The translations under genes and the position numbers were made by a program. DNA of 53,729 bases, from the NCBI GenBank assembly GCA_020536535.1, contig JAHLWZ010000290.1, forward strand, positions 3,171 through 56,899, given 5' to 3'. Below the pieces are notes generated by a model that was not told the DNA's origin, did not search any database, and saw only the letters and a program-made list of their open reading frames with translations. Positions 1-33,767 of the stretch are shown in pieces. Source of the DNA: Pelomyxa schiedti (taxonomy: Eukaryota > Protista > Evosea). Numbering within the stretch: the first letter of the stretch is position 1; each line of letters starts with the position of its first letter.

Positions 1-537
1 TTCATGCCTGTAGAGCAATCTCAGATATACTCGCTGAGCTGCAGAGACTAAATGAATACTTCATGACTACTTACAAACTCACTTTGGAAATTCGTATTGG
101 AGTATGAGAACACTCATTCATGCTGTGAAACAGTAACAAATTCAAAGGTGCATTCAGGAGAGGTGCAAGCAGGAAATGTTGGTTCTTCACATCGGCTGAA
201 CTACACAGTCCTCGGTTTGTAGTCAACTTTTCAAATATTCCAGTGAAGAAAGCTGCAGGTAATACTGTCAACTTGGCTAGCCGCCTTGAGGCTGTGAATA
301 AAGAAGTTGGGACCCAGGTGCTAGCCTCAAATAGTTTCCGGAGTTGCGCCGGTGGCGATTTTGCTTTCAGAGCACTGGGTTCGATATCTGTAAGTAACAT
401 TTTCCTTTCTCTTGAGACTTACTTGTGACAAGGTCAGAGGATTCCAAGACCTCGTTCTCGTTCATCAGTTCCTCGGTGCTATGGATAGGTCCGACTTTTT
501 TTTCCCCTTCAGCTCTCCTAACCAAGAACAGGCTTGA
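1..537 (+). CDS. C-terminal part of a class III adenylyl/guanylyl cyclase catalytic-domain gene; the 5' end lies upstream of the window. Exons are approximately 1-101, 148-214, 259-389 and 433-537.
   Basis: The spliced translation ...LEIRIG|VHSGEVQAGNVGSSHRLNYTVLG|NTVNLASRLEAVNKEVGTQVLASNSFRSCAGGDFAFRALGSIS|VRGFQDLVLVHQFLG...stop reproduces the cyclase homology motifs RIGxHSGxVxAGxxG, LxGxTVNxASRxE and GxIxVxG. Donors are GTATGA, GTTTGT and GTAAGT, acceptors are AG, and phases are consistent. Confidence 0.7.
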
Positions 538-792
538 CCCAACAACGAAACAACTCCTCAAAGACTATCTGGAAATAGATAAAGCCTTATGTGAAGGACA
601 ATCCAATATCGACCCTATGATTGCATCATTTTTGGAAGTACACCCTGAGGATAAAACAGTGTCACTTGCACAGAGCTACCAACAAACACACAAAGATCGA
701 TAAAGAACGGCAACAAAATAAATATCAACGTCACTCATGGTTTGCCCGGAACATCGAATAAACCTTCAACCGGTTGTTCACGAGTCTGCGGA

Positions 793-2058
793 ATGACGAG
801 TGACAACGGAATACCGATAAGAGCTACATGGAAAATCGACGCTCGATCGCAGTTCTTGGCTTTGGCGTGTGGTGCCACGGCCTCTGGTCGTGGGCCAGTG
901 AGCCTGCTGTCAAACGCTTTCGAAGTGTTGGCCTACGAAATTGGCCGCAAGTGGGTAGTAAGTTGCTCGCGCCGTTGGGGATTCGGCGTGGGGGAGGGAC
1001 ACAGCAAGGACGAGATTCCGTGTGGTGATTGCTGCCTTGTGGTTTTCTTTGGAGTGTCGCACACGCTGGGGCTTGTGTGGCACAAGTTGCACCTGTTTGG
1101 CGGCTGTAACTTTGGGGCCTCCAAGCCCTGTGCAAACGGAATGCAGATTGGGTGCTACTTGGGTAGCTCCAAGTGGATGTCCTATCTTCCTTGGGCTGTC
1201 GACAGGGATGGCGCCTTTGTGATGAATGAAGATGACGGCAGGATCGTCGGGCGAATTCGTGGCTCAGTATCCACCTTAAACTGGGTCGAAAGCTTCCATA
1301 GCAACGGCAAGTGGCTCGTTCAGATTTGCAGAAAAAGTAAAATGAGAGTGTGGCGACTTCGTGAGGGTGTTCCTGAGGGCCATTGTGTGCTTATTCGGAA
1401 CCGTCCTGACCACAGAATTTTTGGCACACGTTTCCTGCCTTGGGGCGATGAGAATGAAGTTGTTGTGGTTTCTCAGTCGAAAGAGAAACACGCTTCAGAC
1501 CTACTATTTGTGGATCTTCAAACCAGCGTCTTCAATGAGGCGCTGGTCGTGACCAGCAGTATTTCAGTTCCCTACGAGGCAGACGATATACTGTGCCTGC
1601 CACGTCAGGAATTCCTAGTACTATCGCGGGATTTTTCGATTGAAATGGGGTTCCGCAGGTTTACATACAACACTTTGACCCGGCGACTGTTCTACTTTCC
1701 GGGAGACGTTCAGTTTGTACCGCCGTCACACGTGCTCAACAGACCCCGCCTCGATCATAATTGTAGGATTTATGCTGCCTCCGACCTGGGTCAACCTTTG
1801 CGCCAGTTTCAACAACATGGGTGCCAGCATCCATTTTTCAGAATGACCACAACAGACCGCTGGATCGCAAATGGCGATCCTTCTGTCTCCCTGAATGTCT
1901 ACGACTTGGTCACAGGCACCACCGTGCTCACACTTACTCGCACATTGAAGAGCCCAGGCGTAGCAGGCCAACATTCAGGGGAGACGATACCACAACACCA
2001 CAGCCCACGCCCCCGGTCCCCTCCTTGGCCCCCTGGAACTCCTTGGCTCCACTTCTGA
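793..2058 (+). CDS. Intronless 421-codon ORF, hypothetical protein; moderately GC-rich (~53%) compared with its surroundings.
   Basis: A long uninterrupted frame (track ORF 742..2058) with its first ATG at 793 and sense-like codon usage. I recognise no domain. Confidence 0.35.
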   Translation: MTSDNGIPIRATWKIDARSQFLALACGATASGRGPVSLLSNAFEVLAYEIGRKWVVSCSRRWGFGVGEGHSKDEIPCGDCCLVVFFGVSHTLGLVWHKLHLFGGCNFGASKPCANGMQIGCYLGSSKWMSYLPWAVDRDGAFVMNEDDGRIVGRIRGSVSTLNWVESFHSNGKWLVQICRKSKMRVWRLREGVPEGHCVLIRNRPDHRIFGTRFLPWGDENEVVVVSQSKEKHASDLLFVDLQTSVFNEALVVTSSISVPYEADDILCLPRQEFLVLSRDFSIEMGFRRFTYNTLTRRLFYFPGDVQFVPPSHVLNRPRLDHNCRIYAASDLGQPLRQFQQHGCQHPFFRMTTTDRWIANGDPSVSLNVYDLVTGTTVLTLTRTLKSPGVAGQHSGETIPQHHSPRPRSPPWPPGTPWLHF

Positions 2059-8530: not shown

Positions 8531-11500
8531 TTACTCGTGGGTTAGCAACAACTCTCTAGATACTTGGGCCATTTGAAGTGGGGTACAAGCTCCACTCTTC
8601 TTTACCACAGAGTTGACATCGGCACCATATCTAACTAAAATCTTTGCCACATCCACATAACTAGAAGTTGTTAGAATTTCCCAAAAAGAGACAAGTGTAC
8701 CCCTTTGATGAAGCCAAATGTAGGGGTGCCATCTTCTTTTTGTTAAGCATATCCACAGTGGCTCCCTGCTGAATCAGTACTTCAGCAACATCAGCCATTC
8801 CAGACTGAGCTGAAATTGATGAGGAAATTAAGGAAAAGTGCAAACCCACCTGCTATGTGCAGTGCAGTATTCCCAAAATCATTCTTGGAATCAATTATTT
8901 TCTTCGCCCCAGCAACTTTGGCTAGGACTTTAACAACTTCTTGGTTATCTGAAGGAGTGTGAAACAAGGTATTTCTCCCAATGTGTGACCTTTTTCATGG
9001 ACTGCAACATGAAGAGGGTTCTGCCCACCAGAATTTGAGATCGTAACATCGGCGCCATGATCCAAAAGTAACCGAACCTAAAAACTTGAGATAGAGGAGA
9101 ACATGGAAAAGCTACCATCTCACAGTCACAGTTAGCAGAGGCAACGTGAAGAGGTGTAGAACGTGTGACACTCTTTTCCGCGTTGGTAAAATACAAGAAG
9201 GCATTATTGTACCGGTAAATTTGGGTTGGCACCAGCTTTTAGAAGGAGCTTAACCTGATTCATATTTTTATTTTCTGCTGCAACATGGAGTGCACTATGA
9301 CATATTAAAAAGAAAAGAAAAGAATATTATGACTGAACGTGGACTCAGAGCCAAAATCCAGTATTTGCTTTGAAAAACTTGCGTTTAGAAGAGATTCCAT
9401 CAGTTCATCATTACGGGTTTGGGCCGCTGAAGAGGCATAAAACCAAATCCTTTCATTTTCACATCTTAAAAGCTAACCTATGTGTAAAACCGTATTGGAA
9501 CCACGGCTGAACATATTAGCCAATACTGCAACATCTGCAAGTAGTTAGTATTTCCCTTGCTTGGGATTAGACGGACCAAGTGATAAAAAGGACTGCACAG
9601 ATTCTAGTTTGCCCGAGGTGCATGCTTGGGAAAATGCTCGTGCCAGATTTGGGTCGGGTGTTTTTGATATGCTTGCCTATTGGATGTTAGTTGGGACGTC
9701 TTATTCTTTTTTAACATACTGTAAATAGATTAATAGTATCTCTGTTGCCACTTCGGGCAGCTACTTCAACAGCCTTAATGAAGGTGAATGTCACAAGGAC
9801 TTTGGATAACAACATACAGTAGCGCCATTCTCGTTTGCGAAAGGATTAGCCCCTGAATCTAGTAATAGCTTGGCAACACTTGCATGACCGCCTGCACAAG
9901 CTAGTCCAAGGGCACTAGATCTATTTTAGATGTTTGAAATAATGCACCAGGCAAGTCGTAGACCTCTGTGGGCCAGAGGCATTTGAATTTGTTGCCACCA
10001 TTGTGGCTCCATAAGATAATAACAGTTTCGTAAGTGGAGCATTTCTTAAGGGTGTTACTAACTGGATCACAAAGTAATAAGTTCTACCCCTTGATTGCTG
10101 CAACATGCAAAGGTGTTTGGCCATTTCTGCGTGTATTTATGGCATTTGGATTGCCTCCTAAACCTAGTATTAGTACGGCAACTTGTTCACTTCCACGTAA
10201 TGCTGCAATATGCAGAGGGGTCTATGGAGATATTAGTTATTACTCATGAACTCTGAGGGAAGAACCTGTTGATGAAAGTTGTAGACAGAGCAATCTAATT
10301 TGCCTTCTTTTATCAGCCAGGAAGCAATTTCTGGACGATCAAACCAGGCAGCTACATGCAGTGGCGTCCACTTTCCCGACCAAGGGAAAGTTTTGCTTGG
10401 AGCTGCAGTCAGGGTGGCAAACTGTGCTACTGAGGTGGCTCCAACTATGCGCTGGAGGTCACTAAGCTTTCCTATGATGACGTCAACAGGGCATCCACAG
10501 TTACAAGACACTACCTTTCTCAATGGAGGAAAAGAATCTCGATACAACAGCTGGTGCCAAGCTTGAAGATGACTTGAATTCAGTTAAATCGGTTGGTGGT
10601 GGTGTCACCGGGCGTGATGATGTGGGTGTTGTTACAACTGGAGTCGAATCTGGCTGCACTGTTGGCGTGGATGGAGGTGTTACTGGTCTCACAGGTAAGT
10701 CCACTTGCTGCTGTTGAGGTGGTAGTGGTGGCGTTGTTACAGGTGGGGGTGTGCTTGGCTTTGATGGAGGGGTGATTTGAGTAGTAGTAGTACATGAAAC
10801 CGTTGGTGCTGGAAGCACCTTAACGGATGGGGAAGGTGCAGAAGCGGTAGTAGTTTGTTGTTGCTGCAAAACTGGCTGCGAAGCTGGAATGGGGGGTAAT
10901 GGCACAGGTGTTTTATTTGATTTGGAGGCCAACATAGACCAAGAACAAGATGGCTTTGGAACCACAGGCTCAACAGGAGGCAATGAACTTGGCAGGGGTG
11001 TTGGTTCCACAACCACAATGGCAACAGAAACAGAAGCAGAAGTAGAAGAAGTGGTAATTGTGGAGGATACAACATCAGAACCGATCGTCCCAGATTCTGC
11101 AGCACTGATCAGTGTTTTGCGTTTCCCATAACGCGATGCCGACCCCAAGCTGGGTGTCCCTGTTTTTTTTGCCGAGGACACTGTAGTTGTCAGTGTAATT
11201 CCCTCGTCACGAGACGGTAATGATAGCGGGAGAGCATTTTCCTTGGGCGTTTGCGTGGGACACGGGTGTCCCACGTCTTTGGGCTCAGAAGCGCACACAT
11301 TGGGCTGCGAAATTTGTTGCCGAGGATGTTGGCGTCGAGGAAATTGATGTGGGGGCTGAGGGATTGTGGGGTCGAACAAAACTTTGCTTGGCGACACCGC
11401 TCTGGGTCGTCGTGGTACTTTTCGGGCTGCATTCGTCCCGACACTTTTTGAGGGTGCAGGAGCTGATGAGGGGGCAGGCCGATTGCCTAAGGAGGCGGAC

Positions 11501-11541
11501 AGGAAGGGGTTACTTTGTGTGAGGGTGCTGAAGAACTGCAT
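8531..11541 (-). CDS. Ankyrin-repeat protein with a long Ser/Thr/Pro-rich low-complexity N-terminal region; multi-exon.
   Basis: The S/T/P-rich ORF at 10501..11601 has its first ATG (MQFFSTL..) at 11541 and ends at the donor GAGAAAG|GTAGTG. Downstream, several ANK repeats are encoded at 10547-8531 (TPLHVAAWFDRPEIASWLIKEGKLD; TPLHVASANCDCEMV; MAPLHLASSKG|YVDVAKILVRYGADVNSVVKKSGACTPLQMA...stop). Confidence 0.65.
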
Positions 11542-11881
11542 CGTCCCTTGGGTAGAAGTGATGATAAGGGTTTTTTCAACTTTTGTTTCGGGGAGCTCCA
11601 CTCAAACGGTGAGAAAGTATAAAAATGAACGGGTTTGAGTTTGAAACACGGCTGGTGACATTCCGGTACACGAACGGAAATGCACACAGATACACGTGTC
11701 TGATGGATCTGCTATGTGGAGAAACCAACTTCTGGCAGTTTGTTCCTTACATCAATTTCTGCCGCCAGAATCAAAAGACGAGGAACCGAGGAACCCTCAG
11801 GTTTCAGCTGTTACAGGAACGTTAGAAGCAATCACTTCTCCGGAAGACCACTCCACAGTTCATACAACATAGTCAACTGAC

Positions 11882-12640: not shown

Positions 12641-14152
12641 ATGTTTGTAGTAGGGACGTGGTCGTGTGTGGTTTGGTGCCTCACATTGGGATCTGCTTTT
12701 GTGTTAAGTGTACGTGCCTCTTGTTGGTGGGGTTTTTTTTCTCCCTTTTCCTGAGGTTGTTTCATTAACAGCCCCCTTTTTTTTTTTTGACATAACACAG
12801 TTGTACATGTGGCCTGGAGCTTTGCATGCGGACAGGGATGCTCCACAGGAAATTAAAAAACGGCTCATCAGTGTATCAATAGTATCTGTGGCTTCCTTGT
12901 GTGGCTTCTACTTGTTTTGGATTTACCCAGCTTCTGGAAAAATGGTGCCTCTATTGTCTTTTGTTTTCCTTTTTTTTTGTTGGTTTTACTCCTTTTTATG
13001 AACCGTTCTCGTTTCTAAGCTCCCATTGCGTTCTTTTAGTATGTCTTTCAATAAACCATTTGTCACAGTCTACAGGCTTTTGGCAGTTTATAGGCCTGTG
13101 GCCAAATTCACCTTGGCTTGGTATTATTGTCCCAACAGCCCTTACCGTGTTCCTATTCTTTGGCCCCCTGGTGCTCTCACTTATGTCTCCCGACATTTGT
13201 GGAGTACCGTATAGGTGTAAGCTGGGACAAAGGTTTCAAGATAAGTTGCGGGGATGGCTATATGCACTCCGTTTGCAACTGGAGTATGAAGCCACCAATA
13301 TTATATCTTGGCGTACTTTTGTTATGGTTTATACCATTTTCATTCCCATTACATGTAACGCACTTCTTCCAAGGGACCCCTCACGGAAGAAATTGTTTTC
13401 CGTGGCTGTATGATTCCCATTTTGTGTGCTTCAGGCCTTTCTATTCAGGCTGCGTGCTTCATGTCACCACTGGTTTTTGGACTTGGTGCGTTCAGCCTTA
13501 CACCAGCATTAGTCTATAAAACTCTTCACAAATCCTAAAACCCTTTTTATAGCTCATGTGCACCATGGAATACAAAGGGTTGTAACAAAAAAGGCACCAA
13601 TTCTGGAGGTTATTCTGGGTACAAGTATGCAAAAAGAACTTTTCCTCAGATCGGTAACTGTACTTTTTAGTTGTTCAGTTGACTTACACCACTATTTTTG
13701 GTGCATACACGTCATTTATTCTTATTCGCACAGGTACCCTCTACTACCCTCAACCACTCATGTAACAGGATACAGGGAATCTCTATGCCTGTATATTGGC
13801 GCACTCATTTTGTAACGTTATGGGTCTTCCACCATTTCAAGAAGCAATTGAACATAAATACCGATTTTGTGTGTTATCTTGTTCCCTACTAAACTCTGGA
13901 GTAACACTTTCCAGTGATTTGTACATCTTTTGTTATTGGGCTTGTTGGATTCTTCTTGCTGCTATTCCCACTGACCAACCCACTGTGGTACAGCTCCGTC
14001 TTTGTAGAATTGTTGGAAGGAAGACCAATATAAACAAACAAAAAAAAAAGAGAAGTTCACTCAAGTTGTTTGTTGTTTGTATTATTATTGCCACACACAC
14101 AAAACAAATACTCCCATCCCAAACTGCCTTCCCCTCCCTCTCCCTCCCATAA
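12641..14152 (+). CDS. RCE1: CAAX prenyl protease 2 (RCE1, CPBP family), multi-exon; the 3' end is approximate.
   Basis: Exon 1 is 12641..12709 (MFVVGTWSCVVWCLTLGSAFVLS) with a GTACGT donor. Exon 2 starts at 12801 (LYMWPGALHADRDAPQEIKKRLISVSIVS...). Later exons encode ...LGIIVPTALTVFLFFGPLVLSLMS..., ...EEIVFRGCMIPILCASGL.., AHVHHGIQRVVTKKAPILE, LTYTTIFGAYTSFILIRT and GNLYACILAHSFCNVMGLPPFQEAIEH.... The EExxFR, FxxxH and HSxxN catalytic motifs are conserved, and the order and spacing match human RCE1. Confidence 0.85.
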
Positions 14153-14172
14153 GTTCCCCCCAGGCCTCTCAC

Positions 14173-17100
14173 TCAGTCGCTAGCATATCCCCCATCATCG
14201 CTGCTCTCGCCCCCATCACCTCCCCCAGTAAACGGCCCAGTCTCCTCCGTGCCGGGCTCAGCCTCCGGCTCTGGCTCGGGCTCCTCCACCTTGGGTGTCT
14301 TTGGCTTGGTGGTGGGTATGACGAGCCTAGGGGGAGGCGGCGGCGGGGCCGGCTCGTGCTCCCTGGGGGCCAGCGGGGGTGGCGCCCGCAGGGTCCCGGG
14401 GGTGCTCCGCAGCGTGCCCCCGGAGGCCGCGGTGGACACAGCGGCGACGGTGGCGGTCACCGCCGCGGTGTCGTTGATGCTAAGGGCGGTGTTCTGCCCC
14501 TGCAGGTGCACCGGCATGGGCGGGAACGGCAGAATTTCCATGGGCGTAGGGCAGCTGCGCCAGTGGCGGGGCTTCCCGGTGTGCCAGAATCCTGTTCCGT
14601 GCGTGATAGGTTAGAGCTCTTGGGGGTTGAATTTGGGTTTTTAGGGTTTTGGCCACTTACCAACTTCTTGAGGCGAGTTTCGCTGAAGGGCTCGGTGGAT
14701 GGATTCTAGTACCATGGCTAGTCTTTCTTTAGACTTTCCTTGGAGTGCCGCCAGCTCTCTCTGGGCATCTTCACTGTAGTTCATTACGCCTACTGTTTTG
14801 TTGTGGATAAAGGCGCTGCTCAATGCCTGTCATTTTGGTTGGTTGAATTGGATGAACGCAAGAGAAATACAGTGAATCCATTGGTCTTGGTTAAGTTTTT
14901 GTCCATATCAAGGAACTGCAACCGACGATTGTGTGTAAGCATGTTAGCAACAGCAGCAGCACCGGAGTCACCCATCTGAAAAGATTGAGGGGATTGTACG
15001 GAAATATTACCAAGTACATTATTGTTGGATATATCAATGGATGTAAGGGAGACAGTATCATTCCAAGAATCAAAGAAGGGTATCAATACACGTTTGCCTG
15101 GATAATGGTGAGTTTAGGAAAATTCCAATGGAGGGTAAAAACCAAAGCAGGAGCCAAGTTTCAAGGTTGTAATAGTAGGGCATGACTGAAGGAGGCCTGA
15201 AAGGGCCTGGATAATGGGTCCTTGTGGTCCACTCCGGCTGAGTGTGTCACTCAGGTTCAGAGTATGAAGCATGTTAAGTTTACCTACTGTCTAGAAGATT
15301 ATGAGAAAACATAAACTGAAACGTGGTACAACCTGGACCATCTCTATCCAGGTAGCATCTTTTGTTTTAATACCGGTTAAATCTAAAGAAGCTATCTTAG
15401 ATGCGGCTTGCACAAGGTCTTTGTGAATCTGCATCTGTGCAAATGTAAAAATCTAGTTTGGTACCGTTGTGTGCGCACCTTCAGCTCAGTATTCTCGGAG
15501 AAATTGACTGTGCAATTAGACGCTTTGGGATTACGGGAGAGAGCAGTGAATAGCGATTTGGCTCCAGCGTCATACGAGATACCACAGCCAGAAAGGTTCA
15601 AGTTTGTGATAGAAGGAGAAACCTAATGGAGGTCAGTGATTCCACAGTGTAACAGAGGCAGGACAGTGTTACCTCCAAGAAAGCAGAGAGTACAAAAGTT
15701 GAGTTACCATCTACCAATCTATTATTTGAGATATCCTGGAACAATAATAAGTGAAAAATAGGACTCACTAACAACACACAAGTTCTGCAATTTCGGTCAT
15801 GTGCTTTAGTGATTGAAGGACATTGAGCGACAAAGTGCATCCAGAAAGTAACAAATGTCTAACACTGGTGAGTAATTCTGAATTCTTACGAGCCATATCA
15901 AACCTTATTTTGGCATAGACCTTCAGAGCAAAGAACCACCTCTCCAATTCCAGTGACCCAGGAAGTTCAAACTTGTTGTTTGATAAATTAAGAACCTGCA
16001 GAGACAACGACACGGATGGATTTTCAATAAAGGCCGAGAAAATTAACTGTATTGCTCGGGGCTGAAGGGAGTCAGAAAATACGGATGAAGGAGGGAACAA
16101 TGCAACTTGCATGGAACAATTGGATAGGTCCAATTCAATCAATGGATGTCGATAGCTGTGAAATACTTTGGCCAATTCCAGGGCCGCTTTGGGGGAAATG
16201 TTGTTTCCAGACAAATCCAAAATTTGTACTGCATGGAGTGAGTTCTGTCAATTGTTAAATGGTTACAATCAGAAGGGGCTAACTTTTTTAAGTGCCTCTG
16301 CAACTTCAATAATTTGTTGTTCTGAAGCTCCTATGTCAGAAAGTACAACTTTGGTCAACGTGACATTCGTTTGTAGTACATAGGCAACCATAGACATTAC
16401 TGCTGGTTGTGGAGTATCAGTGCAGATCACACTGTAGGTAGTCTGTGAATTACAGAAATAATACTGGAACGGGATAAAAACCTTCTGAAGTGAGAATCAT
16501 ATCGCAGAGAGGCCACAAGGGCTCTCAGTTCCAGAAGAGGTGCTTTGTCAGCATCATCTTCAATTACAGGGATTTGAGTTATATCCAACTCGGTAACATT
16601 GTTATCTATCAGGTCACGCAAATAGAAAACAACTTCACTGTTGTATTGTTTCAGATAAGAAAGAACAACGTATCATAAAGAATACCGATTTGCGAGCACT
16701 CCATAAAAAGAACATTGTCCATAGTAATTATTGATAAACTTGGTTGCAGGATCAGCTTCATAAGGATCCACTGCAACAGCCCTAAGGAAGGATCAGAGAT
16801 TCACAGTAGATAAGTTACCATACCCACTATCTTCCAGTTGGAAGTATGTGGCAGGGAATCCACTTGCAATTATTGCAAAGGACTCCCTGATGCCCTTAAT
16901 CATGGCACCAGCAGTGGAACATGAGACACTGAATTTATTCGACTTGGAGGGCGATTTATAGGAAATTGTCACCTTGTATCAATTAGGTCATAAAAAAAAA
17001 AGGTTACAAATTTGAAACAAACTTGGTCGTTGCTTCGATTAAGGGACTCCAAATCATACAAGTGGAATTCCCTGACCTGAATGTGCCAAGTTTATTTTAA

Positions 17101-17230
17101 TTGAATGGGAAAGTATCTCAAACCATCTTCAATTTCATCTTCTTTTCTTTGAGGAAAACCCAGATTCGGTACTTGCCAACAACCAAGAGAAGCTGGAAAT
17201 CCTTCTTTTTCTTTTCTTGCCTCTCCACAC
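14173..17230 (-). CDS. Ribonuclease-inhibitor-type leucine-rich-repeat protein (NLR-style LRRs) with an unidentified N-terminal domain and a GC-rich Pro-rich C-terminal exon; multi-exon, limits approximate.
   Basis: Minus-strand ORFs at 14641-16220 encode repeated LDLSxNxIxxxGAxxLxxxL units (LDLSNCSMQ..., LSGCGISYDAGAKSLFTALSRNP, IGDSGAAAVANMLTHNRRLQFLDMDKN). Upstream exons at 16400-16990 read ...VSCSTAGAMIKGIRESFAIIASGFPATYFQLEDSGYG|AVAVDPYEADPATKFINNYYGQCSFYGVLAN|R EVVFYLRDLIDNNVTELDI.... A GTAAGT donor after ..RLKKL leads into the 14173-14541 exon (..APPPLAPREHEPAPPPPPPRL...ESSDDGGYASD stop). Confidence 0.55.
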
Positions 17231-18845
17231 AATTATGCACGCTTTGGACTTCTTCGCCGTACGGAGACCATTTGCTGATGTGAGGGTCCGCTTGTGCTAT
17301 GTCTGTTTGGGTTTTGTTTGTTTTGTTTCCCTTGCGTTAGTACTTGTGGGTGCGTAAACTTGGCGGGGTTACTTTTGTACTGTTCTGTTTCGTCCGACAT
17401 CTCCGCCGGTTGTGTGGTTGTTCGTTGTCTTTTATTTTAAGGGATGTGTCGATCCGCGTCCGCCGATCAGATTTAATTTTTCTTGATTGTCGGTTGAGAT
17501 CCGGCACACGTTACGTGACAACAAACGTCATGTGCGTGGGGTGAAACGGCGACCTCCGGTTTGGTAGACATTCGTGTCGGTGTGAATAGACGCCGTGCAA
17601 ACAATGTTATGGGCCTGGCTCCCTGTTATTGTTCGTTTAGTTCCTAGTTTGCAAATAGATGACTCGCGAACCCACTTAAGTTCGCACAGCTTGGGTGTGT
17701 TGGGACAGTTTTTGTGCGCTCAGCAGGAAGCAGGATACCTGTCTTTTTATGCTATTTGCTGGAGTGAGGTCAAACACTGAGGCTTCTCTACCAGTGAACG
17801 GGTCCCTGTGGTGCCTTGTCAACCACCTTAATTGGACTGTTAGGCATGCTAACAAAAACGAAGACTTAACATACTCTGTTATAGGTACGCGACTGAACAC
17901 ATTGCCATGAAGGAATACAGGGTCATGTAAGATGTCCTGAGAAACGGGGCTATAAAGAGTTAGTTAGCAGCATTCCGGCAGGCTCGCTCTAACCAAAGAA
18001 TATCTGACGGAACATCTGGTATAAATACAATGGGCTTCTTCGTTTCTTCTCTCTTAGCCTTTTCATAGGCGAGAAAGGGATTTGGAATCCGCCTTGCAAA
18101 CTTTCTTAGTAGGTTTGTTTATTGTACAAACTGTTATTAAGAAACCATAGGCCTCATAGAACTTGCTATTTGACTATTATATTGTCAAAGAAGAGGAGGA
18201 TACACTTCGAGCTAGTATATGCAACTTATAGAACACCCGAGACCAGAAATCCAACACTCTTGTGCTCCATGGGGATCTCCAGAACAATATACTTCCGCAT
18301 GTTGCTAGTGTTGGTAACGCCACGCCCAAGCCATCTTCTAGGCCCACATTCCCACTCAAATACGAACGCATCAAGTTCACCGTCGCAATAGCAGATGCCA
18401 GTACAATCGAGAGGCCTATAGAGTCCACCCTGCGCCTCGAAGTCTCCGATTGACCACATTTGGATCTTCTCCTCCTTCCACATGCCCTAAATACTTCGGC
18501 GATAGTCACAGCGCCACACAAGACCAATGCACTCTTCCACTCTGTTGTAGCCCGTTGTGCAGATCCAGTGGGGATCAGATTCCGCTGCAGCTTTGTTGCC
18601 GTATTACTGAGTACCGGGCATGATACCAACCCAAATCTCTGCTGTCCTGTGATACTGCCCATCTCCTATTTCTTTCGTTTTAATGAGATTTCCGTTATTT
18701 CCTGTTTGACACCTTGGCACTTTGAAAGGTTGGCATCTTGGCACCTGTAATCCCCGGATGTCTGAAAAAAAACACCACAAAGCAACACTAAAAAGAGAAA
18801 AGATGTTTGTGTTCTTTTCCAGATCTCCATTTTATTCCAAATGCG

Positions 18846-20255: not shown

Positions 20256-20987
20256 AATGGAGAGAATCTTGCAAGACTAATAAAAACGCAAAAGATCCAA
20301 TGACACGACTGCCAGCTTCAGTAGCAGACCTAATACAAAGTGAGGAAGCAAGCCTAGCATGTGACAAGTGGTACGCATATTGTCAGATTCGTGAACGTCG
20401 CTTTGCTGCCCTACGTGCATTTGCTTTCCATACATGTACATTCTAAGTGTAAACCTACCAAAGAAGTGAGTGCTTTAAAATAGTATTCATGTCTCCTACA
20501 TCCGGAAGAATTTGGTGACCCCGCCAACATTTTGGGTCTGCAGTTGGTTTTTTTGGTTTTCTGAGCTGACGTTTTGATTCCCAACCTGTAAATCACGATT
20601 AATTGGAAAAAGCGGGAAAAACCAAACAAAGAGTGAAGGTGAAGTGGATAGACGACGCGTGCGTACTAAAGTCGAAGTTTAGGCATGTTTAACGGCATTA
20701 GAGCGACATTTGGCATTGGGATGGGTATGTTGTTTCTATGTCACTTTTTTCCCCTTTTTCCTGTCCCGTTTGGTTTGTGCACATCCATCACTCTCATTCA
20801 TTGTCACTTGGTAACTTGAACAGAAAAACCAAACCCCCAAGTGGCCACAACACGGAGAGAAGGTGCGGAAGAGAGTGGTGATAAAACACAGCATCAGGAA
20901 ACGCAAAGCACAAGTCTATCCTGTGAGAAGCAGCCTGATGGTGTCAATGCTCACCCACCTCCCAGAGTAGATGAGTCGGAGCCGGCT

Positions 20988-21698
20988 ATGCTTGGAGACA
21001 GGAGGGAAGATGAATCAGATAGAGATTGGGAGCTTTGTCCAATGGAAGAGGGTCATGTTGGAATTGAAACGCCTTGTGAAATCGTGGTTGCTGATCAAGG
21101 GAAGCAAATGGAGGAACTTGGAATGGGTGCTGAAATGGGCATGAGTGACAGTGTGCTATTCCTGAGGAGTACAGACGGGAGAGTAGAGGATGATGTGACA
21201 AATGGGGCTCATCCAGTGACTGAGGCTAGGGAGACTGCTGTACCAACTGAGGAGATTGTCAGGGAAGAAGTCAAGGAGATTGAATGCCCGACAAGTAATG
21301 AAGCTGAACAAGGAAATATCAAGAATTGTGCCGGTGGGGAGATCACAGAACCAAGTTGTACAATTTCTGTTGAGACTGTGGCCAACGACAGTTCCCTGCC
21401 CAAAGCCGATCAAGTACCACAGGAACCCCAACAAGTCACAGAGGTGCTCAGAGAGAAGAGAAGTAGACGTAAAAGCTGCATCAACATCGTTTACAAACAA
21501 GTGCGCCGTACTATGCTTTCAAAGGCAAAGAAGGAACCCCTTGTCTTTTTCCTTGTGTGGAGCCTAGTGTTGGTATGTCTGATATTGCTTCCTCCCCCAC
21601 TTACACAGCAAAAAAAATCAACGAATGGGAAAATATATAGGGAGTTGCAATCAGGACGTCGTTCTACGCCGGAGAGTTGTACGCAACCCAAGGCCTGA
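20988..21698 (+). CDS. Acidic low-complexity protein with a C-terminal basic stretch plus a single hydrophobic helix (tail-anchor-like); apparently intronless.
   Basis: Track ORF 20841..21698, first in-frame ATG at 20988. It is rich in E/D/T, and the C-terminus reads KRSRRKSCINIVYKQVRRTMLSKAKKEPLVFFLVWSLVLVCLILLPPPL. An upstream acceptor (aacag|) is possible, so this could be an internal exon. Confidence 0.35.
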   Translation: MLGDRREDESDRDWELCPMEEGHVGIETPCEIVVADQGKQMEELGMGAEMGMSDSVLFLRSTDGRVEDDVTNGAHPVTEARETAVPTEEIVREEVKEIECPTSNEAEQGNIKNCAGGEITEPSCTISVETVANDSSLPKADQVPQEPQQVTEVLREKRSRRKSCINIVYKQVRRTMLSKAKKEPLVFFLVWSLVLVCLILLPPPLTQQKKSTNGKIYRELQSGRRSTPESCTQPKA

Positions 21699-21706
21699 GC
21701 CACCCA

Positions 21707-22339
21707 ATGGCTGCCAAATCAACGATGACCAATGGCAATCCCAGCTACAAACAGCCACAGCCACAGCCACAGTCACAGTCACAGTCACAGTCACAGTCAC
21801 AGTCACAGGCCGAGCCTCCACTCTGCGGAGCCCAATTCCAAGAAAGGCTGGCCCTGCTGCTCGACGCCCTCGGGGGCACGGGCGACCCGCCGCCCGCTGC
21901 TGGCGTGACGGTCGAGCTGATGAGCCGCCCAGAGGCAGGCCACCCCCCCGCGGAGCCCGGGTCATCGCCCAGCACCTACCCCACAGTCGCGGCGGCCTTG
22001 GTCAGCGGGCCCCCTCGCCCCTGTCGCTTCATGGCTCGCGTCATCGCTCAGTACCTGGGGCCCCGCCGCCGGCTTGCTGAGGATCAGGGGCCGCGCCCCG
22101 CAATGCTGCACCTCATCGAGTGCCGCGAGAGTCGCCTGGGCCCGCGTGCTACCGTGGAGGAGAACCAGGAGGCACTGAGGGAGTACATTGTGGGAGGCGG
22201 TGGGGCCGTTTACGTGGAGGGGAGGGAGGAGGCCTGCTGGGAGGAGGTCGTGGAGATGGTTAGGGGGCTTGTACAGGACTGCGACGGCGCCGGCGTTCTT
22301 GTGCTACTCCACCCAACAAGTGACATCATCTTGGCCTGA
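21707..22339 (+). CDS. GC-rich (~68%) intronless ORF of 210 aa containing an in-frame (CAGCCA)3(CAGTCA)6 microsatellite that encodes QP/QS repeats; no recognisable domain.
   Basis: MAAKSTMTNGNPSYKQPQPQPQSQSQSQSQSQSQAEPPLCGAQFQERLALLLDALGG...VLVLLHPTSDIILA stop. Third codon positions are strongly biased to G/C, which indicates the sense frame. The antisense ORFs at 21651..21965 and 21745..21975 are judged to be GC artefacts. Confidence 0.4.
   Translation: MAAKSTMTNGNPSYKQPQPQPQSQSQSQSQSQSQAEPPLCGAQFQERLALLLDALGGTGDPPPAAGVTVELMSRPEAGHPPAEPGSSPSTYPTVAAALVSGPPRPCRFMARVIAQYLGPRRRLAEDQGPRPAMLHLIECRESRLGPRATVEENQEALREYIVGGGGAVYVEGREEACWEEVVEMVRGLVQDCDGAGVLVLLHPTSDIILA
21752..21808. repeat. Hexanucleotide microsatellite (CACAGY)n.
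   Basis: cagccacagccacagccacagtcacagtcacagtcacagtcacagtcacagtcacag, read directly from the sequence. Confidence 0.95.
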
Positions 22340-25814: not shown

Positions 25815-27918
25815 TCAAGAATATTTCACCCGTAGGATGCACATAGGCCTTTCCTCACGAGGGACCAACATCCAAGCCCTGTCATAAGCCTTGTAGTACT
25901 TGTCTAGGACTGAGTGCTCAATGGCGGGAGTGTGTTTGACAAGCGGGCGATTTAATGTGCATTTTGTTCCGTCACAGCACCTGTAAACATTGCCACACAC
26001 AGTGCAAAAGTTACGTGACATCCAAACAAAAGATACATGTTTCCACTTTTATGTATAAACAAGGTAAAGGCAAGAAAAAAGGATCATAAGGAAGGTACCT
26101 TGGTTTGGTCACAATCTCCTCCAATCTCATTCAAAAAGTGGCTCAAAACTGATCTTGCATTCTTAGACCACGTTACACTGCTGTTCAACAATGCTTGCTA
26201 GTTTTGTGACTCAGTGGGTCGGTGGAACAGATGAGAAAAGCGCACCTTCCAACAGGAACTGGAACGCCCTGCATGGTACCTTTTTTTCGAAAAAGAAGGT
26301 TATTCACCCGATATTGTGGGTGATATGATGGCAAACCAAAATCGGGAAGTCCGTTGAATCCTCCCAAGGGCTTGCACATCAAGAAGCGCCAGCACTCCGG
26401 CAGTTTCGGCTTGATACAGTGCTGCCATTGCTGTGATGGAATCATCGATCCTGATGATCTCGTTACAAAATTGTTCTGAAAATACGGAGTTTTACTCAAT
26501 AGATGCAGAAACCATCTGTCGTGTATCTATGGCCCCACTTGGAGGCACCTTCTCGAATTCCATGACAGGCATGGATGCACGTAGCGCGTCCGTTGAGCCG
26601 ATAATTTCTGAATATTTTGACACTGAGATGGACCCCACAGCTTGATTTGGGAACAACTTCCAGTATCCTGACGTGGTGTGTTAAAAAAGAAAAAAAAACA
26701 AAAATGCAAGAAATTGCAGATACCGTGGATGTGATCGTACTCTGAACTCTGATAGTGCTTCCAGAGGTCACACTCTTTGTTTGGCAGAACTCCACCCAGT
26801 CTCACCATTTCAGCCACCAACTCACTTTGGTCCAAAATAACAGCAAGAATCATTGGAGTGAAAATTCCTTCATAACTACGAAGCTGGAAGCTGCAAGAAG
26901 CATTGGGATTCGCCCCGAGGGTTAAAAACTTCATTGCCAGCTCTCGCTGGTTTCTCAATATTGCCATGAAAAGTGGTGTTTTTTCATTTGCCGTCTCCGA
27001 ATTGAGGAATGCAGAGAAATTTGGATGATTGACGAGAATATCAAGAAGCTCCTTGTTTGTTGCACTCCAGCGCGGGTACTGTGTTGCGTTCACAAAAGCA
27101 CGGCCAAGGCCCTTGTGGAACACCTGACAGAGATACTGCAAAACATCTGGACGAGCTTCCTCACAACCACAGTACACTGCAATTGGCAGTTTGGCGTCAA
27201 GAGCCTCGATGAATTTATTCCCGCCCCACTTTTCATTCACCAGCAGTTGTATGACTTCCAAATTGTTGTTGTGCATGACCATTTCCAGGGGAGAGTCGGG
27301 CTGAGGGGGCGTTTTATTGAATAGCAAGGTAGCCTTAGTTGGAACATCAAAACGAGAAAGTATCATTCCAATGACATCCGGCTGTAGCTTACCAATACAC
27401 AAGTGCATAGCCGTGACCTTTCTGCCATCCACCGAGCACCACAACCCCGGATTTGCACCGAAGGGTTCCAGCAAGAATCTGGCCACTTCCACATGCCCCT
27501 CATACACAGCACAAGCAAATGCAGTCCCTTCATCCCACTGGTTCCAAGTGCACATGGAATCCGCCATCCGGGAGAAAAAATCTCGCCGGCAAGGCCTTTC
27601 GTGCCACGCATCGTGCACTATCTTCAGCTCCTCGAGGTGCCCGAGAACCGCGCATACGAACATGACATTGATTCGCACCAATTTTTTCGCGCCGTGGCCT
27701 GTTGACGTGTCTGGGACTTTGGTCTTGCACTCGAATGCCCCTGGTTCGTGGCCCACGGGTGTCCGAGCAGCCAACTTGGCCAATTTCCCAGGCCGCGCCT
27801 TGGCCGCGGCTGTGAGGAGCTTGTTGCCCTTCACAACCGAAATGAGGCTGGCTCGTTTGGCGGCATAATTTGCAGAGTGTTGTTGATTGTGGGTGTCGGT
27901 TCCCACTGTCTGTCCCAT
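25815..27918 (-). CDS. Ankyrin-repeat protein with an N-terminal MGQTVGT (Gly2 myristoylation consensus) and a C-terminal Cys-rich module; paralog 1 of a tandem pair. Six exons: join(27918..26724,26667..26496,26450..26337,26279..26246,26197..26099,26045..25815), 614 aa.
   Basis: Exon 1 is track ORF 26527..27918 (ANK repeats, for example TPLFMAILRNQRELAMKFLTLGANPNA). The other exons are ...DHIHG|(G)YWKLFPNQAVGSISVSKYSEIIGSTDALRASMPVMEFEKVPPSGAIDTRQMVSASI|(E)IDDSITAMAALYQAETAGVLALLDVQALGRIQRTSRF(W)|YHAGRSSSCWK|QALLNSSVTWSKNARSVLSHFLNEIGGDCDQTK|WKHVSFVWMSRNFCTVCGNVYRCCDGTKCTLNRPLVKHTPAIEHSV...KYS stop. All junctions are GT..AG and all phases close, and paralog 2 has the same exon pattern. Confidence 0.75.
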
Positions 27919-27998: not shown

Positions 27999-30169
27999 TC
28001 ATGACTGATCAGACATAGCATATCTGTCAAAAAACCCAGAAGGTGTCTCAACAACGCCTCCAAACAGTGAAAGAAACTCGGAGATCACTGCGGTCTTTTT
28101 TTCCTGAGGAACTACCAAACTCCAAGCCAGGTCATATGTCTGGTAGTATGTGTGAAGGGCTGGGTACTCAATGGCGGGAGTGTGACTGACACGCGGGCGA
28201 TTTACTGCGCATTTTGTTCCATCACAGCACCGGTAAGCATAGCCACACCCCGTGCAATAGTTCCGCGCCATCCAAACAAAAGATACATGCTTCCACTTGG
28301 GTGTTTTTCGAATGTTAAACACCAGGGAACAGTACTAGAAGGTACCTTGATTTGGTCACAATCTTCAATCTCATTCAAAAAGTGGCTGAAAATAATCCTT
28401 GCATTCTGAGACCACGTCGCACTGCTGTTCAACAATGCTTTCTAAGGTTTTTTTTTTTTGTTTTTGGTTTTTTTTGTGCTTCGCCAAACCGTTGGAAAAC
28501 ATACCTTCCAACATGAATTGGAACGCCCCACATGGTACCTTTTTGAAAAATGATTATGTTTTTGATGTTACAATGAAGGAGCATAAACCAAAATCGGGAA
28601 GTCTGTTGAATCCTCCCAAGGGATTGAACATCAAGAAGCGCAAGTACTCCGGCAATTTCAGCTTGATACAGTGCCGCCATTGCTGTGATGGAATCATCGA
28701 TCCTGGCAGAACAGTTATTAGTGGTTCTCAAAATCTCGGAGTTTTACCCAACAGATGCAGAAACCATCTCTCGTGTGTGTGAAGGCAGTTTCTCGAATTC
28801 CATGACAGGCATGGATGCACGGAGCGCGTCTGTCGAGCCGATAATTTCTGAATATTTTGACACTGAGATGGACCCCACAGCTTGATGTGGGAGCAACTTC
28901 AAGTATTCTGATGGGTTTGTTAAAAAAACATAAAAACGAAAGGAAATTACAGACACCGTGGATGTGATCGTACTCTGAACTCTGATAGTGCCGCCAGAGG
29001 TCAGAATTTTTACTTGGCAGAACTCCACCCAGTCTCGCCATTTCAGCCACCAACTCACTTTGGTCCAAAATAACAGCAAGAATCATTGGAGTGAAAATTC
29101 CCTCATAACTACGAAGCTGGAAGCTGCACGGAGCATTGGGATTTGCCCCGAGGGTTAAAAACTTCATTGCCAGCTCTCGGTGGTTTCTCAATATTGCCAT
29201 GAAAAGCGGGGTTCTTCTGTTTTCAGTCTCCGAATTGAGGGACTCGGTGAAATTTGGGTGATTGACGAGGATATCGAGAAGCTCCTTGTTTGTTGCACTC
29301 CAGCGCGGGTACTGTGTTGCGTTCACAAAAGCGCGGCCAAGGCCCTTGTGGAACACCTGACAGAGATACTGCAAAACGTCTGGACGAGCTTCCTCACAAC
29401 CACAGTACACTGCAATTGGCAGTTTGGCGTCAAGAGCCTCGATGAATTTATTCCCGCCCCACTTTTCATTCACCAGCAGTTGTATGACTTCCAAATTGTT
29501 GATGCACATGGCCATTTTCAGGGGAGAGTTAGCCCCAGCGGACGTTTCACATAGCAATTTAACTCTGGCTGGAATATCGCAAGCAGATAGAATCATGTCA
29601 ATGACATCCGGTTGCAGCCTCCTAATACAGAAATGCAGAGCCGTTAATTTGTTACCTAGCTTGTCACCGAGCACATCGCACTCCAACCGCGGATTTGCGC
29701 GGCACTTTTCCAGCAAGAATCTCGCCACTTCCGCATGCCCCTCATTCACAGCACAAGCAAATGCGGTCCCTTCATACCACTGTCTCCAAGTGCACATGGA
29801 ATCCACCAACAACACAGAAAAAGTAGTTTTGTCCTCCCAACAGACCCTTTCGTGCCAGGCATTGTGCACTATTTTTAGCTCCTCGAGGTGTCCCAGAGCA
29901 GCGCAAACAAACATAAGATTGAGTCGCACCAATTTTTTCGCGCCGTTGCCTTTCGACGTGTCCGGGATATTGTTCTCGATCCGACATGCCTCTATTTCAT
30001 GGCCCACGGGTGTCCGAGCAGCCAACTTGGCCAATTTCTCAGGTTGCGCCTTGGCCGCGGCTGTGAGGAGCTTGTTGCCCTTCACAGCCGAAATGAGGCT
30101 GGCTCGTTTGGCGGCATAATTTGCAGAGTGTTGTTGATTGTGGGTGTCGGTTCCCACTGTCTGTCCCAT
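27999..30169 (-). CDS. Paralog 2 of the N-myristoylation-motif ankyrin / Cys-rich family, a tandem duplicate of 25815-27918; multi-exon. Exon 1 is 30169..28957; the terminal exon ends at 27999.
   Basis: Track ORF 28718..30169 (MGQTVGTDTHNQQHSANYAAKRASLISAVKGNKLLTAAAKAQPEKL...). It is about 85-90% nucleotide identity to paralog 1 across exons, with divergent introns. The terminal exon reads ...WKHVSFVWMARNYCTGCGYAYRCCDGTKCAVNRPRVSHTPAIEYP.... Confidence 0.7.
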
Positions 30170-30337: not shown

Positions 30338-31134
30338 TTAGGTGACTTTGAGAAGTTCCCACAGCTTGAGCAACTTGTGGTGCCCAAGAACATCCTCCAG
30401 CCTTATACCGCCCTCAGGCGTTTTCGCCAGCTCATCCACAATCTCGCCAAGGAGCAAATCAATGGCCTGCTTGGCCCTGTCGTCCTCCACAGTTGATGCA
30501 CCACTGGGACCACTGGGCCCGCCTCCGCCACCAGAGTCCAATTGTCTGTGTGCGCGGTAGGAATCATACATTACATCGCTGAACGTGTGGAGTTCGTCTG
30601 GTTCCAATACACCATCGGAGTTAATATCAAACAATCTTGGAGTAGTAGTAAGAGTCACGTGAAGGATGATTAGAGAGGCAAGGGGAAGAACCTGCAATAA
30701 AAATACAACTTTTCCTCGTTTGTTCCCTTCTTCAAAATTGACAGAGTTTGTACACAGGCACAACATGCTTTAAGTTGCCTGTCTTTGTCTGCATCACTAC
30801 TCTCTGTTGGAACAGCTGCAGCCACTTCAGTGGCATAGCCCAGGGAGTCGATGATCAAGTCAATTAGTTTGGAACCTATGCCCTGTTGGGCAAAGAACAT
30901 CCGCATGTGTTTCTCAGAAAAAGGTTCATCTGATACAATGTCTGAGGTTTGTGCGGTGAGATAACTTCACATAGAAGAAATATAGAGACCGGAGAATTCC
31001 TGGAATAGCTGATCAACTTCATACATTGAGTAGTGAGTCTAAATAGTAAAGTGGTTATGTTTAATTTTGTTGTTGGGAAAAGAGCGAACCTGGAATGAAA
31101 GTTTTTTATACATGGCACTATTTTTTGTACCCAT
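30338..31134 (-). CDS. EF-hand calcium-binding protein; at least 3 exons. The 5' exon MGTKNSAMYKKLSFQ (31134..31090) has an N-myristoylation consensus, but its join to the next exon is unresolved.
   Basis: Exon at 30941-30775 reads ..IVSDEPFSEKHMRMFFAQQGIGSKLIDLIIDSLGYATEVAAAVPTESSDADKDRQLKACCAC with a GTACAA donor. The last exon VLPLASLIILHVTLTTTPRLFDINSDGVLEPDELHTFSDVMYDSY...LLKLWELLKVT stop contains a canonical DxNxDGxLxxxEL loop. The CAG|GTTCGC donor of the first exon is phase 0, whereas the next acceptor needs phase 1. Confidence 0.5.
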
Positions 31135-32106: not shown

Positions 32107-33767
32107 TTACAGTGTAGTATCCCTAATACCGTCACTGACAAAGAATTTTCCGTCAGAACCTACCTCTCGGCTTTGCTGAAGGGAAATCCTTTGGTTCTCC
32201 TCTGAGGAGACCCGGAACGGATAGTACAGAGTGAATCCCAGAGAATTGTTATCCACAGGATCAGTGGGAGCAGGAGACAGGGAAGTTTTGTATTGCATTG
32301 CCCGATACGGCGTATTTGTGGATGTTATCCATTGCGACACAATGAAATGCAAGTCACTCAACGTGGATAATGAGTGAAGGAAACCGCCATAAAGCTGCGG
32401 GACTTCAGTTCCCGTGAGCATCACTTTCTCGGCGCTCCAAATGCCATCTATTTGAGAAGCTGTTCTCATGACAATTGCATAGCGCGATGGCGAAAAGTAT
32501 GACAACACCCAAGTCTTGTTGAAGAGTCGGAGAGAAAGTTCACCAAGTGGTCCTGTGAAGATTATTAAAAACCTCCAAAACGCATTTCAGTTTCTACCTG
32601 GAAGAATGGGAGTTGCAGGTTGTCCCCATTGCCATCCATTTTCCTCAGTCCAACCCCATGGTATATATGCCGATTGTACGAGAAGTTGCTTTTCTGGCAC
32701 TTTCTGGAGTATCATTCCTTCAGTCCGCACTCGGCCAAACGCACATGATATGATGTAGATATAGCCATCATTTCCATTACACATTGTCCACATTTGATGC
32801 ATGTCACCATTCCCATCATTCCACCACACTGGCGATTGCACTGTCCAGTCCTCCCCGTAGTTGGTACTTGTAGCAAGCCCTGCATAGTTCGTTGCCCAGT
32901 TTGGGTCGGACCAGGAGTGCACACTCATAAATGACAGATAGTTTACATCAGAAACTGTGATTCCATCCCCAGGGATTACAGTAACTTCGTATTGCCCATA
33001 CTTATTGTAGCCATTTTGAGCATTGGGAAGTATTTGCTTTGCCCTACCACTGGATTCTGATCCCGTACCAGCACAATTATCCCAAGTTATGCCCCCATCA
33101 AGTGGATATGTATGCGACCTGCACATCACAGGCGACCTCCACCCTGTACCTCCTGCCTGGTACTCGTCAAATGTATCGCCAAAGAAAAAACCTACCAATA
33201 AAAACATGTAAAGTAAGGCTCAAAAAAATCGCCTCCTACTTACCGAAAGCCCCATTCTGGAACATAAACGGCTCTCCCAGGTCAGTGCCTTCAAATTCGA
33301 ACTGAGTTGTGACTCCTGGGCCAGTGATATCTTTAACCTTAAGGTAGACGTCACCAAATATTGGAAGGGTATTACCGGCAACCTACTGTAAACCTACCTT
33401 CAAAGTTAATTGAGGAGCCACAGGGTCATATTGTAGTTGAGTCTCCAAACTCGCGGTAGGTGTACCAACTGATATCTCATCCGCAACAAGATAAGCCGCG
33501 CTAGCAGGGAAGTGTGGGTGATACCAAGTCCTATTCTATACAGCCATCAAAAAGGGTAACCAGGCACCCTTACTATCCATTATACTTATTGGAGGCAGGG
33601 CGCCTTACGCTGTTGTAATTCAAGCGGACCACTGCCCCACGTCGCACCGGCTCGCCTCGCACGTTCGTCGTAGTGAACAAAAGTTCCGCCCCAGGTACGC
33701 GGGCCAGCTCCGCGTGCGACAACCACGCCACACTGAGGCAGCACACAACCGCCACCAAGCTTCTCAT
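32107..33767 (-). CDS. Secreted protein (signal peptide MRSLVAVVCCLSVAWLSHAE) with a large Trp/Gly/Asn-rich, probably beta-propeller-like domain; at least 5 exons. Weak resemblance to the DUF4185 / glycosyl-hydrolase-like fold; this is my guess.
   Basis: Exons read ...RLNYNS|NRTWYHPHFPASAAYLVADEISVGTPTASLETQLQYDPVAPQLTLK|VAGNTLPIFGDVYLKVKDITGPGVTTQFEFEGTDLGEPFMFQNGAFG|...GDTFDEYQAGGTGWRSPVMCRSHTYPLDGGITWDNCAGTGS...WTMCNGNDGYIYIISCAFGRVRTEGMILQKVPEKQLLVQSAYIPWGW...|GPLGELSLRLFNKTWVLSYFSPSRYAIVMRTASQIDGIWSAEKVMLTGTEVPQLYGGFLHSLS.... Donors GTAAGG, GTAGGT and GTAAGT. The first exon is GC-rich. Confidence 0.5.

Follow-up and report, generated by a model that had tools for sequence, protein, structure and literature searches.

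In yeast, mammals, birds and rice, GC-biased gene conversion (gBGC) at recombination hotspots is associated with local GC peaks that are clearest at synonymous third codon positions (general background in PMC4316630, PMC5576983 and PMC13473671). In grasses and in human, synonymous GC content varies with the position in the gene and with exon-intron structure, as described in PMC2895627 and PMC7181179, these gradients being graded, 5'-biased and present in many genes. Vertebrate CpG islands are a third kind of short GC-rich tract, found within CpG-depleted genomes. These systems are compared here with three tracts located in a 53,729-nucleotide (nt) stretch of DNA from the anaerobic archamoeba Pelomyxa schiedti (contig JAHLWZ010000290.1, positions 3,171 to 56,899), hereafter called the window. 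The tracts, designated islands 1, 2 and 4, lie within the 3'-terminal coding exons of three unrelated genes: a CARMIL/LRRC16A-like leucine-rich repeat (LRR) gene, an orphan gene, whose last exon is defined by a putative intron, and Pelo_3763. They correspond to a real, local shift in base composition driven mainly by synonymous third codon positions. As its origin we tentatively favour, at somewhat under an even chance, a local fixation bias towards G and C, probably exerted by gBGC at narrow hotspots.

The window belongs to a nuclear scaffold of P. schiedti, on which the exons of Pelo_3763 (P0001; gene 47923-49758) were placed by tblastn, essentially all at 100% identity. Its GC content is 44.9% (46.53% in the whole assembly), it contains no Ns, and the introns, intergenic DNA and unscored exons left outside the high-scoring coding segments have a GC of about 0.43. 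When GC was followed in 200-bp windows (mean 0.449, standard deviation 0.058), ten segments reached at least 0.58, the three largest and richest being islands 1, 2 and 4 (Table 1). The second approach was a phase-resolved scan, in which a single codon phase had to show a GC of at least 0.78 over 150 bp (window-wide median 0.52, 99th percentile 0.84). It detected only 14221-14640, 21751-22305 and 49306-49695, together with one borderline 150-bp window (53236-53385) lying just at 0.78. The original prediction had listed four discrete islands, and the fourth of these, island 3, turned out to be weak: its overall GC is 0.62, with 0.60/0.51/0.75 at the first, second and third codon positions (GC1, GC2 and GC3), its 200-bp peak is 0.605 (z = 2.7) and the phase scan did not pick it up. 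Island 3 should be grouped with six other coding segments of moderate GC enrichment and not with the three outliers.

Codon phase is what distinguishes the three islands. Their exons have a GC3 of 0.81-0.83 overall, which rises to 0.93-1.00 in the cores. In island 4, 74 of the 75 codons at 49357-49581 end in G or C, 58 of them consecutively (49408-49581), and GC3 is 0.99 with GC1 (about 0.57-0.6) and GC2 (about 0.43) near background. Island 1 shows a GC3 of 0.95 across 65 codons (14338-14532), the whole last exon of the CARMIL-like gene having GC1/2/3 values of 0.68/0.64/0.81. In island 2 the three values are 0.78/0.53/0.81 over 156 codons, and this strong period-3 composition speaks for genuine coding sequence. 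The remaining exons of the same three genes have a GC3 of only 0.35-0.58, and a codon-usage log-odds scan of all six frames of the window revealed no further coding segment above 0.69, most lying at 0.35-0.6. The extreme GC3 of the inferred sense frames, and its absence from the other exons of the same genes, were therefore correctly anticipated by the original prediction. This was not the case for its statement that all six frames stay open in the islands. Individual frames contain between 0 and 9 stops (the background mean being 6.2 per 450 bp), and no more than one or two frames in each island are entirely free of them. In island 2 the sole frame open throughout is 21677-22339 (+).

Part of the GC enrichment could simply reflect the encoded peptides, as Pro/Ala/Gly-rich low-complexity segments force the use of GC-rich codons. 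Island 1 indeed specifies a Pro/Ala/Thr-rich sequence with a local GC2 of up to 0.87, and the high GC1 of island 2 points in the same direction. However, the third position is the most GC-rich one in all three islands (only marginally so in island 2, 0.81 vs 0.78), and island 4 combines its near-saturated third positions with an ordinary, globular-looking peptide. Moreover, an exon of 1.1 kb rich in Ser, Thr and Pro (10501-11601) has a GC3 of only 0.40. The third-position data refute amino-acid composition as the sole cause, an explanation that is hardly tenable; it is still a contributor, raising the GC of islands 1 and 2 without being the main driver.

G and C are about equally used at the sites that are free to vary. 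Over all third positions, the C:G counts are 48:49, 64:63 and 63:44 in islands 1, 2 and 4, respectively; restricting them to four-fold sites gives 34:30, 44:33 and 22:28. The shift is thus a general push towards GC and not a preference for particular codons. An adaptation of whole genes to their expression level was rejected, because the change in codon usage occurs within single genes and even within single exons.

The CpG dinucleotide is depleted in the window, with an observed/expected ratio (o/e) of 0.61; such a depletion may be a sign that the amoeba methylates its cytosines, or that some other mutation process specific to CpG operates. In such a genome, unmethylated domains resembling CpG islands could retain their C and G. 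The three islands all satisfy simple thresholds of length, GC and CpG o/e, and the core of island 4 reaches an o/e of 1.46, so that they resemble vertebrate CpG islands as short GC-rich tracts in a CpG-depleted background. Two of the three, however, have core ratios close to this background (0.77 in island 1, with a similar value in island 2), and none is at a promoter, all being sited in 3' coding exons. In addition, throughout island 4 the T-ending codons are replaced by synonyms such as TAC, TTC, GAC and AAC, where the C does not precede a G, a replacement for which escape from CpG decay offers no explanation. The codon periodicity, too, is the mark of a force on third positions and not of CpG being protected. 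Very little probability is accordingly left to the CpG-domain explanation.

Table 1. Coordinates and properties of the GC-rich islands and of the features that contain or border them.
Feature	Coordinates	Strand	Properties
Island 1, 200-bp segment	14081-14700		GC 0.644; peak 200-bp GC 0.785, z = 5.8
Island 2, 200-bp segment	21681-22360		GC 0.654; peak 200-bp GC 0.765, z = 5.4
Island 4, 200-bp segment	49281-49740		GC 0.615; peak 200-bp GC 0.685, z = 4.0
Island 1	14100-14600	-	Last coding exon of the CARMIL/LRRC16A-like LRR gene plus ~70 nt of 3' untranslated region
CARMIL-like last coding exon	14173-14591	-	Stop codon 14173-14175; encodes FWHTGKPRHW...PPPPPPP...GGYASD
Intron adjoining island 1 upstream	14592-14660	-	69 nt, GT-AG, GC 0.48; marks the sharp 5' edge
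Putative intron of the orphan gene	21573-21640	+	68 nt; donor TTG|GTATGT and acceptor TATATAG| link the two frames
Putative orphan last exon	21641-22339	+	Stop codon 22337-22339; joined to upstream exon ~20841-21572
Microsatellite (ACAGTC)9.7	21751-21808	+	Encodes (QP/QS)n; 98% matches, Tandem Repeats Finder; abuts the 5' edge of island 2
Island 2 core	21830-22300	+	60-bp GC 0.65-0.82; GC3 0.73-0.93; CpG o/e 0.80
Island 3	33608-33767	-	First coding exon (159 nt) of a secreted BNR/propeller-like gene; encodes a signal-peptide-like sequence
Pelo_3763 last coding exon	49263-49758	+	tblastn 100% to P0001 residues 299-462
Island 4 core	49339-49700	+	GC3 0.87-1.00 to ~49560, then a shoulder of 0.67-0.87 to 49700

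With respect to gene structure, the proposed location in terminal exons was borne out, with three islands in last exons and the weaker island 3 in a first exon, the assignment of island 2 depending on the putative intron of the orphan gene. The possibility that terminal exons are uniformly GC-rich, which was put forward as the observation that would undermine the idea of local islands, was not seen in the window. Ten last coding exons can be identified there, and in seven of them the maximum GC3 over 30 codons is an ordinary 0.53-0.77, as against 0.90-1.00 in the three that carry islands. Because seven of the ten are ordinary, the islands are discrete elements and not a universal trait of terminal exons. 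The ten exons make up about 13% of the window, and the probability of finding all three strong islands inside them by chance is about 0.002-0.006, as a post hoc estimate. Furthermore, the ten longest same-phase runs of G/C in the window all fall within last coding exons. Runs of 15 consecutive same-phase G/C occur at 30492-30534 (-) in an EF-hand-like gene and at 2003-2045 (+) in an ankyrin-cyclase copy, in both cases in the last exon. Compared with the gradients of grasses and human, the Pelomyxa islands share the dependence of synonymous GC on position and exon structure; in contrast, they are 3'-terminal and punctate, and affect three of about ten last exons.

The edges of the islands are sharp. 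At the 5' side of island 1, a single 69-nt intron separates the 3' half of the penultimate exon, where GC3 is 0.39, from the beginning of the last exon, where it is 0.87. At its 3' side, GC is 0.56 in the adjoining 3' untranslated region (UTR; 14100-14172) and then falls to 0.28 at 14033-14099. Islands 2 and 4 start and stop inside their exons, whose margins show ordinary GC3. Within the exons GC3 climbs and drops across 10-60 codons, with no single junction.

This geometry bears on the proposal that selection acts on synonymous sites at the mRNA level, keeping long intron-free stretches GC3-rich and thereby offsetting the missing splicing-dependent export, stability and protection from spurious processing. 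The islands are confined to exons and sharp-edged, one of the edges being the start of an exon. With 419, 699 and 496 nt, their exons are long by the standards of this genome, and the concentration of the longest G/C runs in last coding exons would also be in agreement with such selection. A parallel exists in human genes, where GC content peaks in single-exon genes and in first exons and interacts with splicing, giving a splicing-dependent codon usage (PMC7181179; see also PMC11865589). Nevertheless, other exons of the window that are as long as these or longer are ordinary in GC3, as in the ankyrin-cyclase exons of about 1.2 kb (0.54-0.56), the 1.1-kb exon of a Sel1-like gene (0.43) and the Ser/Thr/Pro-rich exon mentioned above. 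It also speaks against such selection that islands 2 and 4 begin and end inside exons with ordinary margins. No thermodynamic structure signal was detected in the islands, the fold z-scores against shuffled sequence being +0.39, -0.54 and +1.49. Finally, a purely synonymous selection would not be expected to shift amino-acid usage, as seems to have happened in island 4. Here the combined fraction of Gly, Ala, Arg and Pro is 0.29 in Pelo_3763 and 0.24 in its paralogue, the upstream values being 0.20 and 0.24, respectively. On balance, selection on synonymous sites is considered rather unlikely.

The paralogue in question is Pelo_14456 (P0002), which is 37% identical to Pelo_3763, a hypothetical protein with an N-terminus that, judged by eye, resembles a signal peptide. 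P0002 aligns across the whole of island 4 with gaps of only 1-2 residues, identity being 39% there vs 46% upstream. A similar situation is found at the beginning of island 1. A paralogue encoded on another P. schiedti contig (P0003, named F-actin-uncapping protein LRRC16A at NCBI) shares 87% identity with the assembled CARMIL-like protein, and P0003 aligns by tblastn over the first ~55 codons of the GC-rich last exon with an identity of about 85%, close to the gene-wide value. These two regions are therefore ancestral coding sequence, and the suggestion of the original prediction that the islands might be inserted or acquired segments is rejected for them; it is still plausible for the orphan island 2 and for the Pro-rich end of island 1, but not elsewhere.

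P0003 is collinear with the window copy up to the residues TATVAAVS, beyond which it has an unrelated tail rich in Gly, Ala and Arg and stops about 70 codons before the window copy does. The divergence of the tails (14173-14440) suggests a C-terminus that is frameshifted or mis-modelled in GC-rich sequence with several open frames. When the P0003 tail was compared with the alternative frames of island 1, the score obtained (45) was not significant with respect to shuffled sequence (mean 33, standard deviation 4.8, maximum 52).

In its broader form, the replacement hypothesis assumes that each patch was copied, in a single event or a few, from a GC-rich homologous source such as a paralogue or allele, or introgressed or foreign DNA; for the island 1 tail and for island 2, newly exonised GC-rich sequence would be an alternative. 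The sharp edges would agree with it, as would the missing counterpart of the island 1 tail in P0003. Island 2 is an orphan, with a microsatellite at its 5' edge and a low-confidence structure model (single-sequence AlphaFold2 model of the island peptide, predicted local distance difference test score of 37, uninformative). GC-rich DNA also keeps additional frames open, which would ease exonisation or the emergence of frameshifted tails. On the other hand, the identity levels of island 4 and of the start of island 1 reveal no recent foreign or paralogous patch, and the period-3 GC and single clean frame of island 2 typify long-standing coding sequence. A donor is equally lacking from the databases, as protein searches with the island peptides returned no homologues outside Pelomyxa, prokaryotic or other. 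For the orphan peptide, nothing was found in a word-indexed search of 5.8 billion proteins, and one low-complexity match was all that HMMER, run exhaustively against 1.84 billion representatives, produced. No Pfam domains were found in the island peptides, and scans of metagenomes with the CARMIL-like and Pelo_3763/14456 alignments retrieved no relatives. Within the window, a similarity search showed that the islands are alike neither to each other nor to any other part of it, and they are not flanked by direct or inverted repeats, target-site duplications or terminal repeats. Taken together, these data make segment replacement or acquisition a distinctly improbable origin.

The same observations, namely the absence of flanking repeats and of another copy in the window, led to the rejection of a repeat or transposon origin. 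A non-coding RNA or RNA-structure origin was likewise discarded, given that an Rfam scan of the window left the islands without a match (its only hits being two U1 genes elsewhere), a tRNA search of the window was negative, the fold z-scores were unremarkable and the codon periodicity is strong.

The way in which the genome was obtained calls for consideration of technical artefacts as well. The assembly derives from DNA of seven picked cells that was whole-genome amplified by multiple displacement amplification, assembled with SPAdes in single-cell mode and then decontaminated (PMC8887013). The culture was polyxenic and polyeukaryotic, and chimeric joins or contaminant sequence could be imagined, particularly for island 2, an orphan flanked by a microsatellite. 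Yet the reading frames continue uninterrupted through the island edges, GC3 changes over 10-60 codons, there are no Ns, and islands 1 and 4 encode sequence homologous to P. schiedti paralogues, in addition to the failure to find prokaryotic or other homologues. An assembly chimera is very unlikely.

The preferred explanation of the islands, a local fixation bias favouring GC, was inferred because three features coincide: the codons are ancestral, their free sites are saturated with G and C, and there is a slight drift towards amino acids with GC-rich codons. In the corresponding model, a long-acting local force would favour the fixation of G/C over A/T in pre-existing coding sequence. Third positions would saturate, as they are free to respond, while first and second positions would shift slightly towards Gly, Ala, Arg and Pro codons. 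The agent would most likely be gBGC at narrow recombination or conversion hotspots, which may be meiotic, or mitotic in this multinucleate amoeba. By a rough calculation, the background equilibrium GC of about 0.41-0.43 corresponds to an AT-biased mutation ratio of about 1.4, for which a GC3 of at least 0.97 requires a population-scaled bias B of about 4. Values of this order are within the range reported for strong hotspots elsewhere. The free sites of the islands are enriched in GC with both G and C favoured, as is characteristic of gBGC islands, and the resemblance to the GC peaks of other organisms extends to the small Gly/Ala/Arg/Pro shift and to the independence of gene identity. The part of the original prediction that pointed to recombination or gBGC hotspots is thus the best fit to the equal use of C and G at four-fold sites and to the enrichment at synonymous sites of ancestral codons, although it does not account for the sharp edges and the restriction to exons.

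Indeed, several observations weigh against gBGC. Classical gBGC should ignore exon boundaries, and the islands are exon-confined. The neighbouring non-coding DNA is at background GC, both in the introns that precede them (0.48 at 14592-14660, 0.37 at the putative 21573-21640 and 0.37 at 49117-49262) and in the 3' flanks of islands 2 and 4 (0.39 and 0.43, respectively). In favour of gBGC, non-coding GC is raised in one place, the first ~70 nt of the island 1 3' UTR; the cores contain no non-coding DNA. The edges are sharp, with changes completed within tens of nucleotides. Compared with known gBGC peaks, the Pelomyxa tracts also differ in being only 0.35-0.5 kb long and in being located, without exception, at 3' ends. 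Moreover, the whole sample amounts to three islands in one 54-kb window.

Evidence in both directions comes from the ankyrin plus adenylate/guanylate-cyclase family, of which four copies lie in or touch the window, at <1-2058 (+), ~26500-27918 (-), ~28700-30169 (-) and 53192-end (+). Pelo_3766 (P0005) shows 100% identity to 53192-53704, and 853-2055 is matched at 97% by the last 395 residues of this protein. A query combining proteins of several genes of the scaffold recovered just two ankyrin-cyclase proteins. The two tandem paralogues of this family are mosaics in which tracts of 98-100% identity alternate with tracts of 58-80%, indicating that gene conversion does act in the P. schiedti genome. 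The converted tracts, however, are not enriched in GC, and substitutions polarised in these paralogues, which lie outside the islands, show no AT-to-GC excess (18:15 and 11:15, small counts). As a result of exon confinement, sharp edges, background flanks and unbiased converted tracts, selection on synonymous sites and block replacement or exonisation each retain some probability beside gBGC.

If the islands are footprints of biased conversion, an archamoeba for which no sexual cycle has been described would have active recombination or conversion, focused in hotspots of less than 1 kb, and these could be mapped from sequence alone. We know of no description of a sexual cycle in P. schiedti. 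If instead the islands result from selection, they would reveal a position-specific need for GC-rich synonymous sites in the long terminal exons of an intron-dense genome. In P. schiedti there are about 7.5 introns per gene, and the assembly amounts to 52.4 Mb (PMC8887013). GC content is labile among Archamoebae, ranging from 24% to 61% (PMC8136499), which is in line with the favoured explanation. A literature search found no paper linking Pelomyxa to GC3, codon usage or gene conversion.

It can be speculated, with a low probability of being right, that exon-confined 3' islands of high GC3 occur throughout the Pelomyxa genome and are the sign of stable conversion hotspots that are very narrow and associated with transcription-unit 3' ends. 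At the density of the window, about one per 18 kb, there would be thousands of them in a genome of 52 Mb, and for the first time recombination in an archamoeba thought to be asexual could be approached through sequence. Hotspots of this kind might be caused by breaks associated with R-loops or with transcription termination in long intron-free exons or, alternatively, by conversion with reverse-transcribed mRNA from other genome copies within the multinucleate cell.

Independently of their origin, GC3-rich tracts have practical consequences. They distort codon-usage statistics and could be mistaken for foreign DNA in compositional screens. By lowering the density of stop codons in several frames they also render gene models fragile, as exemplified by the tails of the CARMIL-like paralogues and by the orphan exon. 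No protein exactly matching the CARMIL-like gene (14173-17297, -) or the orphan gene (20841-22339, +) is in the protein database, which does include other P. schiedti proteins encoded on this 59,247-nt contig; both may be unannotated genes or dropped models.

CARMIL/LRRC16A proteins combine a PH-like domain at the N-terminus with an LRR region of the RNI type. Regarding the protein encoded by the CARMIL-like gene, matches to LRR_1 and LRR_6 were above cut-off, whereas an N-terminal PH-like domain (PF24081) scored 23.1 bits, under its cut-off of 27. The capping-protein-interaction motif of CARMIL proteins has the form LxHxTxxRPK(x6)P and is followed by a Pro-rich tail. The last exon of the gene encodes FWHTGKPRHWRSCPTP, followed by PPPPPPP, which resembles the spacing of this motif without fitting it. 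The gene converges with an Rce1-like gene (+, stop codon near 14032), and because only ~140 nt separate the two stop codons, the 3' UTRs of the two genes must overlap or abut.

Very short introns are found in the window, namely those preceding the exons of islands 1 (69 nt) and 2 (68 nt, putative) and one of only 45 nt (48969-49013) in Pelo_3763. This 45-nt intron is in frame; if it were retained, Pelo_3763 would be longer by 15 residues (GVLTSKMEPLLRGIT). Elsewhere in the window are the two U1 small nuclear RNA genes, which are complete and arranged head-to-head about 140 bp apart, at 51575-51736 (-) and 51875-52033 (+), matching RF00003 with 72.7 and 75.8 bits, respectively.

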